This document shows positions 1,318 to 20,732 of a stretch of DNA of 64,000 bases, in pieces. Location: sequence record NC_070981.1. One strand, written 5' to 3'. The DNA comes from Escherichia phage EK010. The notes under the pieces were generated by a model that saw nothing but the letters and a program-made list of their open reading frames with translations, ran no database searches and was not told where the DNA came from. Each line of letters starts with the position of its first letter. Position 1 is the first letter of the stretch. Made by a program: the position numbers and the translations under genes.

Positions 1318-2268
1318 ATGTCAATCTCCGCATCGATTGCTCCGGTAACACCAGCAGAGAACTTCGGTGAGTCAGTGTTCAAAGGAAGAGCTTGCTTTGG
1401 TACTTTTAACTGTATGCACATGTACTCTGTTACAGACATTAATGGTGAAAGTCTTAACCAAACAAGCCTTCGTGACAGAACTTCAGAAATTGAAGTTATT
1501 AACTTCTGGCCTCACAATTTTTATGGCGTACCAGCTAAAGATATCGAAAATGCTTTAGTTGAAGCAACAGACATTTTTAATTCAATGTCTTGCTATAAAG
1601 ATATGTTCTCTGTCACTTCGGTGAATTCAATTGCCGTGAACCTTCGAAACCATCCAGCAGACAAGGTGTTTACTGGACTAATGACCATCCGTAGCTATTT
1701 GGATGGTGATTTTAATGGAATGGAGTTCCTTCAGGAAGGCGTACAAGACAAGGAAGAGTTGCTTAAGCGACAACGAATCGGTTTAGCTCTACGCCTAGCT
1801 GGTTTAAGTCGTAACTTCTTTGGTCGCTGGTGTTATAGTAATGACGTAGACTCAACTGATGAGTCAGCAGCGACTTATTTTGATGGTGACATGAGTGCAA
1901 TTGCATTTCTGCCACTAATTTGCACCACTGATGAATTTTCTGAAAACGTATGGGTTCAGAATGTGTTCGGTGTTGATGATAACCTAGATGGTTATGTACG
2001 AAACCATAATGATGGAGTTCTCCGTCGTATGGCACGTCGTCGTGACCAAGACCCTGACCATTACGAGAGTATGAGTGAATGGTTACGTCTCTGGTCAACT
2101 TGTGCAGGTCACAAGAGAGAAGTATTAGATCAGCGTATGGATAGAATTACTGTTCGTAGTTTTATTGAACGTCTGATGCAAGCAGTACCTTCCTCAATGA
2201 CACCAGAAGAAGCTGGTGCCCGTGTTGTTTCCCTTTTTGATGAACTCGTGGAGTATTACAATGACTAA
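1318..2268 (+). CDS. hypothetical early protein (316 aa)
   Basis: ATG ORF; GAGG RBS; tightly packed after previous gene. Confidence 0.6.
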   Translation: MSISASIAPVTPAENFGESVFKGRACFGTFNCMHMYSVTDINGESLNQTSLRDRTSEIEVINFWPHNFYGVPAKDIENALVEATDIFNSMSCYKDMFSVTSVNSIAVNLRNHPADKVFTGLMTIRSYLDGDFNGMEFLQEGVQDKEELLKRQRIGLALRLAGLSRNFFGRWCYSNDVDSTDESAATYFDGDMSAIAFLPLICTTDEFSENVWVQNVFGVDDNLDGYVRNHNDGVLRRMARRRDQDPDHYESMSEWLRLWSTCAGHKREVLDQRMDRITVRSFIERLMQAVPSSMTPEEAGARVVSLFDELVEYYND

Positions 2269-3067
2269 GCGCGCTTTCCTTATTGGCTCTGACCCTGAAA
2301 TGTTTGTTCGTACTGCTTCCGGTATTATCACCTCTGTGGCTGGTAAGCTGGGCTGTTCTAAAGATAATAAAATTGATCTGGCTCCTGATGTTCGTCTTCA
2401 AGAAGACAACGTTCTGGCTGAGTTTGATATTAACCCACAGAAAGGGTTTGAAGCGTTTGATGATAATATTCAGCGTGGTATTGATCTGACTAACAAAGTT
2501 CTCAATGAACGTGGCATGGAGGCAGCACTTGGGATTAGCTCTCATGTGTTCACTTCAGAAGAACTTGAATCATTCCACCCGTCAGCTTTTGTATTTGGCT
2601 GTACTCCTGATTTCAATGCCTTCACTGGACAAAAGAACCCTTCACCAGTCGCAACCGATAAGGGTTTGCGTACTGCTGGGGGTCATGTGCACCTTGGTGT
2701 CTCCGGGACTTTAGAGATTACTCGACAAACTCAAATGATGTTGGGTGTGTTGTGTGATTACTTCCTGTCCTTGCCAGCTGTGATCATGGATAAAGACACT
2801 CGTCGTAAAGAGTTGTACGGAAAGGCTTCTGCCATTCGCTACAAAGATTACGGTATTGAATATCGTTCTCTTTCTAACTTCTGGATTGGTGATAAGTCCA
2901 CTCGCAAGTTTGTTTATGAGCAAGTGGATAAGGTTGTTCAGGGTTGTGATATGGAAGTGTTGATGTCACTTCACTCTCGCCTTCCAATTGAAAAGCTTCA
3001 TAACATCATCAACAGCAACGATGTTAAAGAAGCGGATAAATTCTCCTCTAAACTCCAGATTGTATAA
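2261..3067 (+). CDS. candidate glutamine-synthetase-like amidoligase (COOH-NH2 ligase), divergent
   Basis: Start moved to internal ATG with GGAG RBS 7 nt upstream; N-terminal 'GSDPEMF' resembles the GS 'GPEPEFF' carboxylate motif; later 'GGHVHLG' H-x-H motif. Confidence 0.35.
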   Translation: MTKRAFLIGSDPEMFVRTASGIITSVAGKLGCSKDNKIDLAPDVRLQEDNVLAEFDINPQKGFEAFDDNIQRGIDLTNKVLNERGMEAALGISSHVFTSEELESFHPSAFVFGCTPDFNAFTGQKNPSPVATDKGLRTAGGHVHLGVSGTLEITRQTQMMLGVLCDYFLSLPAVIMDKDTRRKELYGKASAIRYKDYGIEYRSLSNFWIGDKSTRKFVYEQVDKVVQGCDMEVLMSLHSRLPIEKLHNIINSNDVKEADKFSSKLQIV

Positions 3068-3076
3068 GGTGATATT

Positions 3077-3703
3077 ATGAGCTTGTTAAGAGATTTTCAA
3101 CACTATTATTGTGGAACATGGATTGCTCAGCGATCACCTGATGGTAAAAACCTCCCTCTATATGTGCTTGATGTTCGTCAGCAAGGTAACTTTGATATCG
3201 ACGACTACTCACACGACGCTGAAATGTCTTTAGTGTTTGAGGCGGAACGCTGGACTAAAAACTCTGAAGGTCAGTTTGAACGTCAGATTGTTAGTAATAT
3301 CCCAGTGTTTGATCACAGCCTCATTCTAGAGTCTCCAGATGTAGGATACCTTCAGCATGGTAATAACATGGTGAGCTGGACCCATATCAACCCTGTTCGT
3401 CAGCGAGCTAAAGGCTTGATGGGGAATAAACTTCGTGGTGCTGCACCTTCTCTCGGACGTTCGATTCCGGGTGATTTGGTGTACAACTTGTTTAATCCAG
3501 AGTTTGAAGGGTTGGTTACTCGTTTCATCTATATCAACCCTGTCGATGGAAAAGTGTATTACAAAGGGGCTTACGTTGGAAACGTGCTTCTTGAAGCTGG
3601 CTATGGCGACAACGGTCGCCAATCTTTAAACCTTCTGGAGAAGTTCAAGCATATTTCTTCAGACCTGTCATCATATAATGTAGAGTTGGTGGAATCATTA
3701 TGA
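3077..3703 (+). CDS. hypothetical protein (208 aa)
   Basis: ATG ORF with AAGGTGA RBS; sits between the two amidoligase-like genes. Confidence 0.6.
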   Translation: MSLLRDFQHYYCGTWIAQRSPDGKNLPLYVLDVRQQGNFDIDDYSHDAEMSLVFEAERWTKNSEGQFERQIVSNIPVFDHSLILESPDVGYLQHGNNMVSWTHINPVRQRAKGLMGNKLRGAAPSLGRSIPGDLVYNLFNPEFEGLVTRFIYINPVDGKVYYKGAYVGNVLLEAGYGDNGRQSLNLLEKFKHISSDLSSYNVELVESL

Positions 3704-4800
3704 CAACCGTAGCACAAGTTTTTGGATACCGTAACCCTCGCTTATCTGAACCACATCCAAGTATTGCTTTTCAGTGTGGTGTAGGTATTGAGTTAGAAGT
3801 CGAAGGTACAATTGACATTGACGCTGATATGTGGGTTTGTACTGAAGATGGCTCTCTTCGTGATGGTTGTGAATTAGTGTGTGCACGACCTTACAACGGT
3901 GAAGAATTACTTCGTGCTATTAACAATCTGAGTGAAGCAGTACAGGACTCTGGAGCCGAGGGAACTTGGCGCTGCTCCACTCACGTTCATATGGATATGC
4001 GGGACGCTGATAGTAATATCCTTAAGAAAGTTATTCTTGGGTGGACGTTCTATGAAAAGATGATGTTCAAATGTTCTGGATATCATCGTTACCGTAGTAA
4101 CTTCTGCCCAGCTTTTGCTGTTGTTCAAGCTCAAGTTATGAATGCTTCATCAGCGTTCAACCGAGATGGGGAAGATTTCTTCCGTACTCTTGTTAATAGC
4201 TGGGACAAGTATACCTCCCTTAACCTGTTGCCTCTATCTCAGTTTGGTTCTGTTGAGTTTCGTATTTCAGAGCCGAAGTGGAAAAAGAGTCAGCTGCTAA
4301 ATCTGGTCAATCGCTTCTTGGTTCTCAAGAAACTGGCTGTTGAATATGCAGATTTAGATAATGAAGCTTATGTTGAGAAGTTGAATGAGCTGCGCTTCGC
4401 TCCTATGATTCAACATCTACCTCTAGACTATACTCCAAGAGATAGCGATCTCACTGAAGGGTATCGTCTTGCCCGTGATATTCTGTTCTGTCGTGAGCAA
4501 TCTGTAACTTTGGTTGGTCGTGTTCGTGTGCAACAGACTGGCCCTGATGGTGAAGTCCTTATCAACTTACGTGATATGAATGACTTCTATGGTTTCTTGG
4601 GATATGTGCGCGGTAATGCCAACACTGTCTATGAAGAGATCATGACCTACTACACTCCTCAGATTGAAAGCACTCGAATCGCAACGGTTCGTGAAATTCG
4701 TCACATGTTTGCATTGATGCGTGAATCAGGTAGCAGTGATAATAACATCACTGATTACATTCCAGACCATCTGGAAATGCAATTAGAACGACTGCTGTAA
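3700..4800 (+). CDS. amidoligase (glutamine-synthetase-like COOH-NH2 ligase family)
   Basis: Motifs 'GIELEVEG' (E-x-E), 'EDGSL', 'GCELV', 'STHVHMD' (H-x-H); start overlaps previous stop (ATGA). Confidence 0.5.
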   Translation: MTTVAQVFGYRNPRLSEPHPSIAFQCGVGIELEVEGTIDIDADMWVCTEDGSLRDGCELVCARPYNGEELLRAINNLSEAVQDSGAEGTWRCSTHVHMDMRDADSNILKKVILGWTFYEKMMFKCSGYHRYRSNFCPAFAVVQAQVMNASSAFNRDGEDFFRTLVNSWDKYTSLNLLPLSQFGSVEFRISEPKWKKSQLLNLVNRFLVLKKLAVEYADLDNEAYVEKLNELRFAPMIQHLPLDYTPRDSDLTEGYRLARDILFCREQSVTLVGRVRVQQTGPDGEVLINLRDMNDFYGFLGYVRGNANTVYEEIMTYYTPQIESTRIATVREIRHMFALMRESGSSDNNITDYIPDHLEMQLERLL

Positions 4801-4877
4801 CACAATGGGCGCTCTGATAAAGGGCGCATTTAAAGGTTAATTAGATGAAAGGGTTTACCCTTCAGGTGGATTAGAAA

Positions 4878-6911
4878 ATTTGTGGTATCGTATTAGCTGG
4901 CGGCAACATGACCTCAACAGATTTGGATATTTTCAACCAACTTCTGTATGCTGGTGTTTTCCGGGGACAGCACTCAACTGGTGTGTTTGGTCAGCGTAAA
5001 GGTGAAAAGCAAGTCTTCTCTTATAAAGAAGCTCTTCCTTCTTATGCTTTTATGCTCCAGACAGAATATACAAATATTACCAAAGGGCTTACGAACTACG
5101 TGGTTCCTCCTTCGTGGATTGTTGGTCACAGCCGACATGCCACTCGTGGGGCTGTCAATGCTCGAAATGCTCACCCATTTACTCACGGGGATATTACTCT
5201 GGTTCATAATGGAACCCTGTTAGATCAAGATCTCCTTCCTGACAGTAAGCGTTTCGAAGTTGATAGTGAAAACATCTGCCACTCAATTAATACCATTGGA
5301 GCAGCAGAGACTATCCAAAAACTGGATGGTGCATTCACTTTAATCTGGCATGACGCCAAAGATAACACGCTTCACATTATCCGTAATGATGAGCGTCCTT
5401 TCCACCTAGCCCGTTGTGGTTTAGATTGGTTTGGGGCTTCTGAAGAAGCTATGCTTATGTGGATTTTAGAGCGTTCTAAATCCCACAAGAACCGTATCAA
5501 TGACCACTTCGAGTGTAAAGTGGGAACTGAGTATATCTTTGATGTGTCTAACAGTCGTATGACTCTGGTTCAAGAGGTGGAGCACAAGCTTCCGGTTTTT
5601 ACGGTAACGAGTCGCTGGGGCGGCTATTACTCGAACTCCTCTCTATATCAGAACCAACAGACAAACAAATCAAGCAGCAGCACAAGCGACATTTACGGAA
5701 ACAAAGACGACAAGCCCGGCGTGACAAGCGGAGACATTCGTCGTCGTAAAGCGATTGAAGACCAGAACAAACTGGCTGCCGATCGTGGTCTTCCTTATCG
5801 TCGTGATGGTCGTGTGGATATTATTCCTCACGAGTTCCATGCTTATAACAACACAGATCGTGGTAAGATGGTTGGTTACATCTACGACGATAAAGCCCAA
5901 GAGTATGTCGAAGGGGATGTTCACAACGTAGCCAAAGATGAATATCTTAAGGCTCTTGAAAACCCAAAGGTAGTATATCGCGGGACGATTGCTTGTATCT
6001 CCGAAGTGGACAGTATGATTCGCCTCGTACTAACTTCAGGGCTGTTTGTTGATGCTACAGATAAGGAGCCTCAAAGCACTACTGCTGATTTTGATGATGA
6101 TATCCCTTTTGATGCAGAGGACTCCTTCATCACTAAAAATGGTGTAGAAGTCACTCGTAAGTTCTGGGAATCTCACTCTCATGGTGATTGTGGTGGTTGT
6201 GATAAGCACATTGACTGGAAAGATGCTCGTAAGGCTGTGTTTGCTTATCAAGCATACTGGCATCCAGAATGCTTCGAAGCGTTATCTAAAACCTCTGAAG
6301 ATGAAGAAGATGTGCCTTTGGGTGTATGTGCTATCTGTGGTGAAGTCAAGACTGATTTCGAGTTTGACAACGAAATGAGTAAACTTCGTGGTGAAGACGT
6401 TTGTTATATCTGCTCCAAAGAAATCAAAGATAAAGTAAAGAATGTTACTCTATCTGAAGGTTATATTTGGACTAAAGCAGTAGACACAACCAACCCACGT
6501 CGTCCTGAAGTAGCTGTTCGTGTTGATGAACGTATGCTTAGCCGTATGATCGTAATGGTTAGCTCAGCAAAACGTTCAGGGGATATCACACTTGCAGATG
6601 TTCCTAATTCGTATTTGGAAAAACGTGGTGGTGATACTTATGCCATCTCTGTTTATGGTCCAAAGAATGCCCCAAAGGAGGTACCCGCTGAGAAAGCGGA
6701 GACATTTCCAGAAAAGTCAACCTCTCTCCGAAAAACAGTTGTCAGTTACGATGGACAACGAACAGCTGAGTTTACAAAAGCCCTCTGGACTTCAATTGGG
6801 TTTTGTGCAGTCTGTTATAAACAAATTCCGTGGCGTGATGCAGAAACTTGCTCACTAAACAAAGAAAATAGAGTGATCTGTAATTCAGATTACTGTAAAG
6901 GTAAACACTAA
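4878..6911 (+). CDS. class-II (Ntn) glutamine amidotransferase-domain protein with C-terminal Cys-rich zinc-ribbon-like motifs; probable AUU start
   Basis: Track ORF starts at ATG 4908, but in frame just upstream is stop-AAA-ATT-TGT-GGT-ATC-GTA giving '(I)CGIVLAGGNM...', the GAT-II N-terminal Cys-nucleophile signature; AGGTGGA RBS at 4864-4870, 7 nt before ATT 4878; downstream 'FRGQHSTG' and 'HNGTL' fit PurF/GlmS-type domain; C-terminus has three C-x2-C pairs. Confidence 0.55.
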   Translation: MCGIVLAGGNMTSTDLDIFNQLLYAGVFRGQHSTGVFGQRKGEKQVFSYKEALPSYAFMLQTEYTNITKGLTNYVVPPSWIVGHSRHATRGAVNARNAHPFTHGDITLVHNGTLLDQDLLPDSKRFEVDSENICHSINTIGAAETIQKLDGAFTLIWHDAKDNTLHIIRNDERPFHLARCGLDWFGASEEAMLMWILERSKSHKNRINDHFECKVGTEYIFDVSNSRMTLVQEVEHKLPVFTVTSRWGGYYSNSSLYQNQQTNKSSSSTSDIYGNKDDKPGVTSGDIRRRKAIEDQNKLAADRGLPYRRDGRVDIIPHEFHAYNNTDRGKMVGYIYDDKAQEYVEGDVHNVAKDEYLKALENPKVVYRGTIACISEVDSMIRLVLTSGLFVDATDKEPQSTTADFDDDIPFDAEDSFITKNGVEVTRKFWESHSHGDCGGCDKHIDWKDARKAVFAYQAYWHPECFEALSKTSEDEEDVPLGVCAICGEVKTDFEFDNEMSKLRGEDVCYICSKEIKDKVKNVTLSEGYIWTKAVDTTNPRRPEVAVRVDERMLSRMIVMVSSAKRSGDITLADVPNSYLEKRGGDTYAISVYGPKNAPKEVPAEKAETFPEKSTSLRKTVVSYDGQRTAEFTKALWTSIGFCAVCYKQIPWRDAETCSLNKENRVICNSDYCKGKH

Positions 6912-6922
6912 GAGGTATAGTT

Positions 6923-7156
6923 ATGGAAGTTCGTAAACTGATGTTGGATAACGTGGTAACTACCCGTCGTATTCCGATGACAAGCACAGGATGTGATAAC
7001 CTCCGAGCAATTCAGAAGTGGATGCAAGAAGGTATTGGGAAGCTGGTTGACTCTCCAGTAGAAATCCCTTTTCCAACCGTCATTAATAACGTGTTGGCTG
7101 ACTATGTTAAAATGAAGGGGATTAAAGTTGAGCCTCATGTCAAGCAAGGGAGCTAA
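6923..7156 (+). CDS. hypothetical protein (77 aa)
   Basis: ATG ORF with GAGG RBS. Confidence 0.5.
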   Translation: MEVRKLMLDNVVTTRRIPMTSTGCDNLRAIQKWMQEGIGKLVDSPVEIPFPTVINNVLADYVKMKGIKVEPHVKQGS

Positions 7157-7358
7157 GCCTCACCTGACAATGCTGGAGTATCAACAACTCCGACTTCAAC
7201 AACTGGTAACGGAGCAGCGAAAGCTGTATCCGTTTGCTTTTAACCTAATTGATTCACCAAGCGATGACCAAGAAGACGAGATGTTCGCCAAGTATTGGGA
7301 AATCGAAGTTAAAATTCAATCCTGTCGTAACGAAATTCTTAAACTAAAAGGTATCTAA
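7137..7358 (+). CDS. hypothetical protein (start uncertain: 7137 or 7170)
   Basis: Track ORF begins at TTG 7128; first in-frame ATGs at 7137 and 7170; overlaps previous gene. Confidence 0.4.
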   Translation: MSSKGAKPHLTMLEYQQLRLQQLVTEQRKLYPFAFNLIDSPSDDQEDEMFAKYWEIEVKIQSCRNEILKLKGI

Positions 7359-7360
7359 AA

Positions 7361-8596
7361 ATGACTACTCGTATCCGTGTTCTTCCGTATGGCCCTTCTG
7401 ATTCTGTTAACGCTCTGGTAACTGCCATTAACGATACTATCCGTGATGAACGTATCAACGCTAACATAATGGGTCTTCTTTCAGAGAACAGTCGCTGGCG
7501 TTCTCGTGAGGGTGATGTGGTTGTGAACTACGGGAACCGTCGCTATCCTGAATCCTTCTTTGGTTCTGCAACTGTCCTTAACCGTACCGCAGCCTTACAT
7601 ATGGCAGCGAACAAACGTCGTGCTTTCAGCGTGATGGACCAAGCAGGTGTTAAAACTGTTGAGTATACAGATGTTCAAGAGATTGCTCAGGAGTGGTCAA
7701 ACTCTGGCAACATTGTGTATGAACGTCATGAACTGACTGGTCACTCTGGTTCGGGTATCGTTGTTGTTGAGCCTCGTGATTCAATTGGTCAAGCTGAACT
7801 GTACACCAAAGGTATTCAAGGTCCACGTCGTGAATGGCGTGTCCATGTGTTCAAAGGTGTTATCACCTATGTTCAGAAGAAGATTCGTCGTAACGGCTAT
7901 CGTGAAGACCCTAACTATCGTGAAGATGTTCGTAACCATCACACTGGTTGGGTTTACTCAAGTTCCTTCACAGACGCTCCAAATGATGCATCTCTGATCA
8001 ACGCAGTGAAAGCTGTTGAATCAATGGGTCTGGATTTCGGTGCAGTTGATATCATCACCAAAGGTCAAGAAGCGTGGGTACTGGAAGTTAATACAGCACC
8101 GGGCCTGACTGGTACAACTCTGGATACCTACCGTCATAACATTCTTGAGTTTGTTAAAGCTCAAAACCCTCTCTATACCCCTCAGTATAAAGTGGTTTAC
8201 CAGACTCCGATTGAAGATGGAGACGGTGAGTTGGTGGATGATATTGAAAGTGCTGATGATGAAAACTTTGCACTGGAAGGACAAGTAGCACAGCCGATTG
8301 ATTCAGTTGATGTGGTTCCTGAAGAAATGCAACTGGAAGGTCAGATGAATACTCAAACTATTCGTAATGCACCTACTGGCTACACTTTGTCTCGTGGCTA
8401 CTGGATTGCAAATATCCGTCATGTCCACAACAACCTGCAACCGAATGCAATGTCTGCCAATGTCATCCTGTTCTGTGATGGTCGTAACTTCTACCGCAGT
8501 GGTTGGAACGTTCCGGTCAATCCAGTCCAGATTCATAACCCTCGCAAGTTAGAGTCTGTCAATGTTGAAGGTAGCGAAGTAGCAGTAACTCTGTAA
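7361..8596 (+). CDS. ATP-grasp ligase (RimK/glutamate-ligase-like)
   Basis: 'GHSGSGIVVV' glycine-rich loop and 'WVLEVNTAPGL' Mg/ATP-binding E-x-N motif typical of ATP-grasp enzymes. Confidence 0.5.
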   Translation: MTTRIRVLPYGPSDSVNALVTAINDTIRDERINANIMGLLSENSRWRSREGDVVVNYGNRRYPESFFGSATVLNRTAALHMAANKRRAFSVMDQAGVKTVEYTDVQEIAQEWSNSGNIVYERHELTGHSGSGIVVVEPRDSIGQAELYTKGIQGPRREWRVHVFKGVITYVQKKIRRNGYREDPNYREDVRNHHTGWVYSSSFTDAPNDASLINAVKAVESMGLDFGAVDIITKGQEAWVLEVNTAPGLTGTTLDTYRHNILEFVKAQNPLYTPQYKVVYQTPIEDGDGELVDDIESADDENFALEGQVAQPIDSVDVVPEEMQLEGQMNTQTIRNAPTGYTLSRGYWIANIRHVHNNLQPNAMSANVILFCDGRNFYRSGWNVPVNPVQIHNPRKLESVNVEGSEVAVTL

Positions 8597-19920: not shown

Positions 19921-20241
19921 ATGACCGATAAGGCGAAACGTGATTATGCACAAGAACGAAGAACTGCAATCGCAAGGGGTGAAACCGGCGTTGGTAGCAA
20001 GAGCGGAGATGCTCAGCGCCACCGTGCACGTCGCATCGTTGAAAAGCGCGATGGAAAAGCTGCTGTCCGAGGTAAAGATGTTGGACATAAACGATCAATC
20101 AAGTCGGGAGGTTCTAATGCGTCAAGTAACTTACGTGTTGAATCAGTCTCTCGAAATCGCTCGAACGGCGGCAAAAGTGGAGATCGTGCTGGAAAATCAG
20201 CAGGAGGAGTCAAATCGAGAAAAGGCGCTCTAAGTCAATGA
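19921..20241 (+). CDS. basic Arg/Lys/Gly/Ser-rich protein (106 aa); region also open in a second + frame
   Basis: AAGGAG RBS 5 nt before ATG 19921; TAATGTATA motif 35 nt upstream; alternative ORF 19940-20233 in another frame. Confidence 0.45.
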   Translation: MTDKAKRDYAQERRTAIARGETGVGSKSGDAQRHRARRIVEKRDGKAAVRGKDVGHKRSIKSGGSNASSNLRVESVSRNRSNGGKSGDRAGKSAGGVKSRKGALSQ

Positions 20242-20732
20242 TTCCGATTTCCGACTACTTGTCATACGACCCGGATACTGGTTTATTGATTTTTACCGAA
20301 TCTAGCTCTAAAGGTAAGAAATGGAATAAATCACATCCGGGAAAAGTGGCAGGGGCTGTTGATGAAAAAGGATATATCAGAGTTTACTTTGAAGGGAGGA
20401 GATGGAAAGCTCACAGACTTATAGCTTCTGTGCTCATACCTAACCCTGAAAATAAACCACAAATTAACCACATCAATGGTAACAAAAGTGATAATAGGTT
20501 AGAGAACCTAGAGTGGGTCACTGGTCATGAAAATATACAACATGCTTTTTCAACAGGTCTTAATGTTGGTAAAGAGAGGGATGCTAATGGAATGACTAAA
20601 ATCAACACATTGGATGTGGAGAAGATCAAGAGTTTATATGTTAAAGGCTCTACCACTCACGGAACAAGAGCACTAGGTAAGATGTTTGGCGTAAGTCACA
20701 CAGCTATCCGACATGCTTTAAGCTCAAGTTAA
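20238..20732 (+). CDS. HNH homing endonuclease
   Basis: 'NHINGNKSDNRLENLEWVTGHENIQH'; paralog of 9112-9648; followed by terminator. Confidence 0.7.
   Translation: MIPISDYLSYDPDTGLLIFTESSSKGKKWNKSHPGKVAGAVDEKGYIRVYFEGRRWKAHRLIASVLIPNPENKPQINHINGNKSDNRLENLEWVTGHENIQHAFSTGLNVGKERDANGMTKINTLDVEKIKSLYVKGSTTHGTRALGKMFGVSHTAIRHALSSS

Follow-up and report, generated by a model that had tools for sequence, protein, structure and literature searches.

Start region of the amidotransferase gene

We describe the start region of a gene, predicted to encode a class-II glutamine amidotransferase of the N-terminal nucleophile (Ntn) type, in Escherichia phage EK010. The gene lies within a stretch of 64,000 nucleotides (the window; record NC_070981.1), and its region is 100% identical to record OP293233 (reverse strand) from Escherichia phage E20-1, a phiEco32-like podovirus of the Gordonclarkvirinae. 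A mechanical caller of open reading frames (ORFs) lists a single ORF for this gene, which begins at an ATG at positions 4908-4910 of the plus strand, the strand that carries all of the start-region features given below. Upstream of this ATG, the same frame reads TAG (4872-4874), AAA (4875-4877), ATT (4878-4880) and TGT (4881-4883), followed by GGT ATC GTA TTA GCT GGC GGC AAC up to the ATG, and its translation is '*KICGIVLAGGNMTSTD'. An initial annotation, made from the sequence alone, proposed that the gene is translated from the ATT, behind a Shine-Dalgarno sequence and a hairpin; all of these elements, from the hairpin to the ATG at 4908, are present in the window. The frame, its conservation and some existing annotations point to the ATT as the start codon, which would be read, as AUU, by formylmethionyl-tRNA (fMet-tRNA).

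The putative Shine-Dalgarno sequence, AGGTGGA (4864-4870), is separated from the ATT by a 7-nucleotide spacer, TTAGAAA, and in a duplex computation CAGGUGG pairs with the 3' end of 16S rRNA at -7.0 kcal/mol. Fold prediction places a hairpin of five base pairs (hairpin A, AAGGG-UUUA-CCCUU, 4849-4862) directly 5' of it. This hairpin belongs to the centroid fold, with an energy of -4.6 to -5.3 kcal/mol and a mean pair probability of 0.61, and its 3' end lies at -16 from the start codon, 1 nucleotide off the Shine-Dalgarno sequence, which stays free. The minimum free energy (MFE) fold instead predicts an alternative hairpin B (GGUUUACC-CUUCA-GGUGGAUU, 4852-4872), in which GGUUUACC pairs with the Shine-Dalgarno segment GGUGGAUU at -6.1 kcal/mol and with a mean pair probability of 0.22. 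Hairpins A (-5.3 kcal/mol) and B are thus predicted to be nearly iso-energetic. In the leader, a long-range pairing between 4835-4847 and 4886-4898 is predicted as well.

A mini-ORF that the initial annotation did not remark on occupies positions 4845-4874 (ATG-AAA-GGG-TTT-ACC-CTT-CAG-GTG-GAT-TAG, encoding MKGFTLQVD*). Its nine codons are in frame with the ATT, it spans hairpin A and the Shine-Dalgarno sequence, and its stop codon lies 3 nucleotides before the ATT; the sequence AAAGG (4832-4836) is found 8 nucleotides upstream of its ATG. Rfam covariance models run over 4500-5200 gave nothing near the gathering score; the best overlapping match, to TLS-PK6 on the other strand, scored 18.4 bits where 44 is the gathering score. 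No sigma-70 promoter or intrinsic terminator was called in the leader, and the promoter and terminator table for phage SU10 lists nothing near the amidotransferase gene.

Identity of the enzyme and its catalytic cysteine

The corrected coding sequence (4878-6911, plus strand) has 677 codons, and the N-terminal ~260 amino acids of its product correspond to the class-II (Ntn) glutamine amidotransferase domain. In Pfam, the product matches GATase_6 (53.8 bits; cut-off 27) and GATase_7 (25.1 bits; cut-off 25), while GATase_4 (22 bits) falls just under its cut-off of 23. Among 5.8 billion proteins searched, 32 relatives with 33-71% identity were recovered, most of which begin with M-C-G-[IL]-V, and an alignment of 23 family members has invariant residues at C2, G3, R29, G30, H84, R86, T89, N111, G112 and D129. 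The amidotransferase as a single query found no match among solved structures; a family profile matched E. coli GlmS (4.6e-18) and PurF (4e-13).

In the profile alignment, position 2, which is the cysteine encoded at 4881, falls on residue 1 of 1jxa_A and 1xff_A, both mature GlmS, and it likewise corresponds to Cys1 of PurF. By homology, therefore, the protein has a class-II (Ntn) glutamine amidotransferase domain whose catalytic cysteine is encoded at 4881, and the argument that a start at ATG 4908 leaves this cysteine out is borne out. The TAG at 4872, the Shine-Dalgarno sequence and the conservation described below suggest that the mature protein begins with this cysteine, which would become residue 1 once the initiator methionine is removed.

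Conservation and existing annotations

Across all 95 phiEco32-like records, the 75-nucleotide leader with its ATT never falls below 98.6% identity; over the full 2.3 kb, 74 of these records are only 60-80% identical. An alignment of seven genomes of the group reveals an invariant block of 55 nucleotides (4831-4885), flanked by coding sequence that is only ~74-98% identical in the same genomes. Codons 4881-4907 vary only synonymously among the seven, except at one Asn/Ser site, and encode CGIVLAGG[N/S], which can be compared with the MCGIVLAGG of relatives that start with ATG. The ATG at 4908 is not a conserved start, because it is replaced by CTG or CTC in phiEco32, SU10, EP335 and KBNP1711.

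The ATT start is not new at the level of annotation, and the initial annotation rediscovered it. In the phiEco32 reference record of 2008 (NC_010324, gene 83, YP_001671828), the coding sequence begins at ATT, as it does in SU10 (677 amino acids, Table S1) and in the BASEL records (Bas86-94, including Bas87). These are the same gene, already read from this ATT. Unlike them, the records of E20-1 (ORF81, OP293233), SU7 and ECBP2 begin the coding sequence at ATG 4908, that of EP335 begins at an ATG ~170 nucleotides downstream of the ATT, and most of the 60 listed phiEco32-like records have no coding sequence over the leader; records with a start other than the ATT are OP293233, MZ342906, NC_018859 and NC_070979. 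Because their coding sequences begin downstream of the leader, the annotated proteins lack the catalytic cysteine. The SU7 record also places a 4-nucleotide 'ribosome_binding_site' before the wrong ATG. A literature search that included the SU10 and SU7 papers, and did not cover the phiEco32 papers, found no discussion or test of the ATT start. The SU10 orthologue has been detected by mass spectrometry, with nine peptides (SU10 proteomics).

Start codons across the enzyme family

Two unbiased scans of viral contigs were made with family alignments, and distinct lineages were counted. ATT or ATC directly precedes the cysteine codon in 14 of the 69 lineages from the first scan, and ATT does so in 2 of 30 further lineages from the second. 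The combined scans therefore hold 16 such lineages among 99, together with one GTG and one TTG, and no ATA or CTG start occurs among the scanned lineages. Among the 32 matches from protein databases, six have ATT or ATC at this position. All 105 lineages together comprise 81 with ATG, 22 with ATT or ATC, one with GTG and one with TTG, and the ATT aligns with the ATG of proteins that start with MCG. Gene callers extended four database proteins upstream (P0003, P0014, P0015 and P0028) and truncated two others (P0026 and P0032); each has an ATT directly before the cysteine codon and a strong Shine-Dalgarno sequence 5-10 nucleotides upstream of the ATT.

In a neighbour-joining tree of the domain, which is rough at such depth, ATT/ATC lineages are scattered among ATG lineages. 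Some of them have common types of leader between Shine-Dalgarno sequence and start, namely GGAGATGAGAAA-ATY and GGAGG-N-TAG/TAA-N4-ATY, and because these types are shared between lineages, the number of independent origins of ATT/ATC may be nearer five than twelve. When 18 ATT/ATC lineages were checked, 11 contained none of ATG, GTG and TTG in frame from the closest preceding stop codon to the ATT/ATC, and one ATT lineage reads TAA-ATT-TGT. Candidate starts in the remaining seven sit within the Shine-Dalgarno sequence or have none of their own. We also considered whether a stop codon in the spacer after the Shine-Dalgarno sequence is a hallmark of ATT/ATC lineages, and dropped the idea, since the AT-rich spacers of ATG lineages contain TAA or TAG equally often.

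A hairpin and a strong Shine-Dalgarno sequence accompany AUU and AUC

We counted simple stems of at least 4 base pairs with an energy of -2.5 kcal/mol or lower, using the ATG lineages as a control for the association; the hairpins vary in stem and loop length and have no common sequence. A hairpin whose 3' end lies at -13 to -17 occurs in 15 of the 22 ATT/ATC lineages and in 4 of the 83 canonical ones (Fisher p = 9e-10), whereas hairpins at -22 to -45 show no difference between the two classes. The 13 hairpins that we tabulated have stems of 4-7 base pairs and loops of 3-6 nucleotides. Stem sequences are unrelated even among lineages with the same type of Shine-Dalgarno-spacer leader, and unrelated stems at a fixed position are, on comparative grounds, the signature of a conserved structure. 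The Shine-Dalgarno duplex is also stronger in ATT/ATC lineages (-8.5 kcal/mol, versus -7.1 in canonical lineages; p = 0.005). Family-wide recurrence of a hairpin, a Shine-Dalgarno sequence and AUU or AUC appears to be new, as we found no description of it.

Proposed initiation at AUU

We consider it probable (roughly 0.86) that the amidotransferase gene of phiEco32-like phages is translated from the AUU at 4878. This start is favoured because it is the only reading that gives the enzyme its N-terminal catalytic cysteine; a canonical upstream start is ruled out by the in-frame TAG two codons before the ATT, with no ATG, GTG or TTG between. The proposal of the initial annotation thus gains support from the alignment to Cys1, the upstream TAG, the unconserved ATG at 4908 and the occurrence of ATT/ATC in divergent lineages. 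Judged by the identity of the leader in 95 records (at least 98.6%) and by ATT/ATC before the cysteine in 22 lineages, the start arrangement is far beyond chance.

It is established that fMet-tRNA can initiate on AUU, and that initiation factor 3 (IF3) discriminates against AUU and AUC, but not against GUG or UUG. In the mechanism that we propose, the strong Shine-Dalgarno sequence, AGGUGG(A), located 7 nucleotides upstream, would recruit the 30S subunit, and fMet-tRNA would read AUU with a mismatch at the third position. Deformylase and methionine aminopeptidase would then remove the formylmethionine, which is possible because cysteine is a permitted second residue, and the exposed Cys1 would form the Ntn glutaminase active site with its free alpha-amine and thiol. 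The ammonia released would feed the neighbouring amidoligase and ATP-grasp enzymes. The initial annotation linked the AUU to exposure of the cysteine; removal of the methionine is indeed needed, but AUU itself does not expose the cysteine, since formylmethionine is inserted and removed as for AUG. Output of the gene would be set low and probably be IF3-dependent, because AUU is under IF3 discrimination and is several-fold weaker than AUG. The hairpin could be a structural helper for initiation on a weak codon, which might stack on or brace the helix of Shine-Dalgarno and anti-Shine-Dalgarno sequences at the 30S platform, or might protect a poorly translated mRNA. What the analysis itself shows is the layout of the sequence, its conservation, the homology to Cys1 enzymes and the statistical association of ATT/ATC with the hairpin and a strong Shine-Dalgarno sequence; initiation at AUU, methionine removal, IF3 sensitivity and the role of the hairpin are steps that we infer rather than observe.

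Measurements in E. coli are relevant to these steps: AUU yields 6-8 times less reporter than AUG, output from AUU rises twofold with the infC junction (a stop codon, 3 nucleotides and AUU), and expression is stimulated by a weak hairpin placed immediately 5' of the initiation region (PMC3592434). That AUU serves to limit expression is plausible. The combination with a very strong Shine-Dalgarno sequence and a hairpin nevertheless suggests something more specific than simple down-tuning, and the near absence of GUG and UUG in the family suggests that IF3 sensitivity or a very low output is a selected property, and not merely that the codon is weaker than AUG. The reading that we favour is that a codon disfavoured by IF3 is used deliberately to make the enzyme, and that the strong Shine-Dalgarno sequence and the hairpin make initiation there reliable.

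Several observations weigh against this account. A weaker Shine-Dalgarno sequence could also down-tune the gene, and limited expression fails to explain why the weakest codon is combined with the strongest Shine-Dalgarno sequence. The MFE fold of the leader hides the Shine-Dalgarno sequence in hairpin B, and the fold z-score is only -1.6. Hairpins are missing from 7 of the 22 ATT/ATC lineages and are present in four ATG lineages. Predicted accessibility of the Shine-Dalgarno sequence is equal in the two start-codon classes (0.52 in ATT/ATC and 0.54 in ATG lineages), so we rejected the idea that the hairpin simply unmasks it. The proteomic study of SU10 reports no N-terminal peptide. Finally, full invariance of 55 nucleotides, including the loop and upstream bases, implies constraints that the model does not name, and suggests that these constraints overlap.

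A broader hypothesis is that the hairpin, Shine-Dalgarno sequence and AUU/AUC together form a distinct, selected and undescribed class of initiation region, which many lineages of the enzyme family have retained or evolved anew. Such a region would not simply hold output down, but would tie production of the enzyme to the state of the host ribosome at initiation (IF3 occupancy or the state of the platform). We put this forward tentatively, and would not be surprised to see it fail. In its most speculative version, the device might be linked to the RimK-like ATP-grasp enzyme of the same gene cassette, which might act on the 30S platform; if so, the device would include the in-frame AUG at -33.

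Alternative explanations

The mini-ORF at 4845-4874 raises the question of how ribosomes arrive at the AUU. Under termination-reinitiation, a ribosome would translate the mini-ORF, melt both hairpins, stop 3 nucleotides before the AUU and, kept in place by the Shine-Dalgarno sequence that it has just passed, start again on it. This scheme shares its start codon with direct initiation and differs in the route and its regulation. The mini-ORF is in frame, has AAAGG 8 nucleotides upstream, spans exactly the hairpin and the Shine-Dalgarno sequence, and lies within the invariant 55-nucleotide block, and hairpin B, by sequestering the Shine-Dalgarno sequence, would make de novo entry conditional. 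The spacing of stop codon, 3 nucleotides and AUU is also that found between thrS and infC, whose coupling raises output from AUU twofold (PMC3592434). In 6 of the 22 ATT/ATC lineages, the 5' foot of the hairpin holds an ATG (at -33 in the window, L096, L046 and L082, at -30 in L008 and at -27 in L061), always in frame, with no out-of-frame ATG at -33 to -27 in any ATT/ATC lineage; the 55 canonical lineages examined have three in-frame and four out-of-frame ATGs in that range. This pattern was, however, noticed post hoc, and the other 16 ATT/ATC lineages have no such ATG. Three of the six ATGs are followed by a stop codon (giving MKGFTLQVD*, MLRH* and MC*) and three are not, and the position of the stop is inconsistent, being -6 in the window, -15 in L061 and -27 in L082, with none in L008, L046 or L096. 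Since the upstream ATGs also have a weak Shine-Dalgarno sequence or none, we regard reinitiation as unlikely.

The remaining alternatives deny that AUU is a start codon. If the ATG at 4908 were used, the protein would have no catalytic cysteine and be inactive or have a role other than as a glutaminase, and 'ICGIVLAGGN' would be a decayed remnant; an AUU start, by contrast, predicts the N-terminal peptide CGIVLAGGNMTSTDLDIFNQLLYAGVFR. This ATG is the sole canonical start of the ORF, and it is the one used in the E20-1, SU7 and ECBP2 records. Yet most of the phiEco32 group has CTG or CTC in its place, its Shine-Dalgarno sequence is weak (-4.8 kcal/mol), the codons upstream of it are under constraint at the protein level and homologous to the MCGIVLAGG N-termini of ATG-starting relatives, and all catalytic residues of the domain are kept. 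A remnant, moreover, would not preserve an unchanged ATT and strong Shine-Dalgarno sequence across 95 records, which makes this start very improbable. Propeptides are known in Ntn amidotransferases, such as B. subtilis PurF (11 residues) and GltB, and translation could by analogy with PurF start at ATG 4845, read through the TAG at 4872 and produce a leader, MKGFTLQVD-X-KI, that is removed autocatalytically. The in-frame ATG 11 codons upstream would fit such a leader, as would the ATGs of L008, L046 and L096, which lack an intervening stop codon and would give extensions of 10-11 amino acids. But TAG (4872-4874) stands between ATG 4845 and the cysteine, most ATT/ATC lineages have stop codons there, and readthrough by a suppressor tRNA was rejected because none is encoded in the 64-kb window. 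A propeptide also requires neither a residue before the cysteine that is always encoded by ATT or ATC nor a strong Shine-Dalgarno sequence at the distance of a start codon, and we find this explanation scarcely credible. Lastly, ATT differs by one base from ATG, the start of most homologues, and might be a sequencing error or the mark of an inactivated gene. This is effectively refuted by the same ATT in 95 independently sequenced phage records, by an intact ORF of 677 codons under purifying selection, by detection of the SU10 orthologue as a protein, and by the recurrence of ATT/ATC in many distant lineages. Conservation within the phiEco32 group thus excludes, for practical purposes, a sequencing error, a pseudogene and a start at ATG 4908.

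Gene neighbourhood and other features

The amidotransferase belongs to a cassette of four genes, which we take to correspond to the phage amidoligase system that Iyer and colleagues reportedly predicted in 2009. Upstream are a COOH-NH2 ligase gene (2216-3067) and an amidoligase gene (Pfam Amidoligase_2; 3700-4800, plus strand), which is in the same operon as the amidotransferase but in a different frame and ends with TAA at 4798-4800. Downstream on the plus strand is the gene of a RimK-like ATP-grasp enzyme (7361-8596). The C-terminal ~400 amino acids of the amidotransferase (5660-6911) are rich in cysteine, with many CxxC pairs, and match LIM only below threshold; proteins of the phiEco32 group have 677 amino acids, versus ~400-450 in most database homologues. 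Two small overlapping ORFs between the amidotransferase and ATP-grasp genes (6923-7156, 77 amino acids; 7128-7358, 76 amino acids) are kept as pairs of 'hypothetical proteins' in every relative inspected, and may be further members of the cassette.

Directly 3' of the amidoligase stop codon is an intercistronic hairpin (GCGCUCU-GAUAA-AGGGCGC, 4809-4827, plus strand), which has no U-tract and for which terminator prediction made no call. Relatives maintain it through compensatory changes (GCGCT/GGCGC versus GTGCC/GGCAC), and it may be an element for mRNA stability or processing. In ATG-starting sister lineages of the phiEco32 group (L018-L025), the Shine-Dalgarno sequence is closely preceded, roughly 30 to 15 nucleotides before the start, by TTTAAATGTAAA, which resembles the promoter element of the phiEco32 sigma factor gp36 (consensus tAATGTAtA; PMC8948821). 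The window has TTTAAAGGTTAATTAG in the place of TTTAAATGTAAA, at 4828-4843, where no promoter is reported in SU10. TTTAAAGGTTAATTAG may be a degenerate relic of the promoter element.

In two unrelated ATT lineages, an HNH endonuclease gene is immediately upstream of the amidotransferase gene (L095, 1046-1447; L096, 883-1308), and that of L095 overlaps the amidotransferase start. The window itself contains a look-alike of the start region (20188-20241), consisting of a hairpin (GCTGG-AAAA-TCAGC, 20188-20201), AGGAGGAG, 4 nucleotides and an ATC at 20214. This ATC is in frame with, and eight codons upstream of, the ATG of an HNH homing-endonuclease gene (20238-20732). Homologues in EcoN5 and SGF2 keep neither the ATC nor its Shine-Dalgarno sequence, having GTG or ATG starts behind AAGGGG. 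The HNH gene is missing from most relatives, for example Bas86, in which AGGAGGAG is absent at that position. We rejected this candidate for a second module in the same phage as a chance resemblance.

Significance

In most GenBank records of this large phage group, several of them from work on phage therapy, the annotated enzyme is missing its catalytic cysteine. In metagenomes, about one-sixth of family members are truncated or wrongly extended by gene callers restricted to ATG, GTG and TTG starts, and from these wrong starts it follows that the proteins are mis-modelled and mis-clustered. Starts other than AUG, GUG and UUG, such as those of infC and pcnB, are regarded as isolated curiosities; in this one enzyme family, AUU and AUC exceed GUG and UUG by about 10:1. 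The 22 lineages, with their differing stems, constitute a natural replicated data set on how bacterial ribosomes use codons that IF3 disfavours, and on why a phage would express such an enzyme from one of them.

Comparison with known systems

The phage enzyme resembles GlmS, PurF and AsnB in its Cys1, the Asn-Gly of the oxyanion hole and the conserved Arg and Asp, and can be aligned with them from the first mature residue. Unlike these enzymes, it carries a Cys-rich C-terminal region of ~400 amino acids with no known synthase domain, and it is encoded within an amidoligase/ATP-grasp cassette. B. subtilis PurF faces the same problem of exposing Cys1 and has an 11-residue propeptide, and three ATT/ATC lineages have a stop-free, in-frame ATG 10-11 codons upstream. 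In contrast to PurF, the phage gene has an in-frame TAG, and its Shine-Dalgarno sequence and ATT/ATC point to internal initiation rather than processing.

E. coli infC is autoregulated by IF3, and to our knowledge a hairpin abutting the Shine-Dalgarno sequence is not a feature of that gene. Both infC and the phage gene have an AUU start with a Shine-Dalgarno sequence and a stop codon 3 nucleotides upstream (UAA GGU AUU in infC, UAG AAA AUU in the phage; PMC3592434), and IF3 discrimination against expression would be expected for the phage gene too. However, the phage gene does not encode a translation factor, which leaves no obvious feedback loop, and the frame before it is no real gene but a mini-ORF of nine codons.

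Hairpins also occur at initiation regions in phage T4, where those of genes 25 and 38 lie between the Shine-Dalgarno sequence and the start codon and shorten their spacing. Better initiation goes with a small local hairpin in or next to the initiation region in the case of the weak 5' hairpin HP10 of Osterman et al. (PMC3592434) and of T4 gene 25 (reference in PMC3014915). Unlike the hairpins of T4 genes 25 and 38, those of the phage family occupy a fixed position (-13 to -17) on the 5' side of the Shine-Dalgarno sequence and are associated specifically with AUU and AUC.

Rare starts that lower expression have precedents: the AUU start of E. coli pcnB, which encodes poly(A) polymerase, attenuates its expression. 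Similarly, E. faecalis ebpA has a rare ATT start that holds the protein level down, and a downstream ATG that was mis-annotated as the start (PMC4447247). Whereas ebpA and pcnB are single genes, the phage family has ATT or ATC in about one-sixth of its lineages, in company with a positioned hairpin and a Shine-Dalgarno sequence of greater strength.

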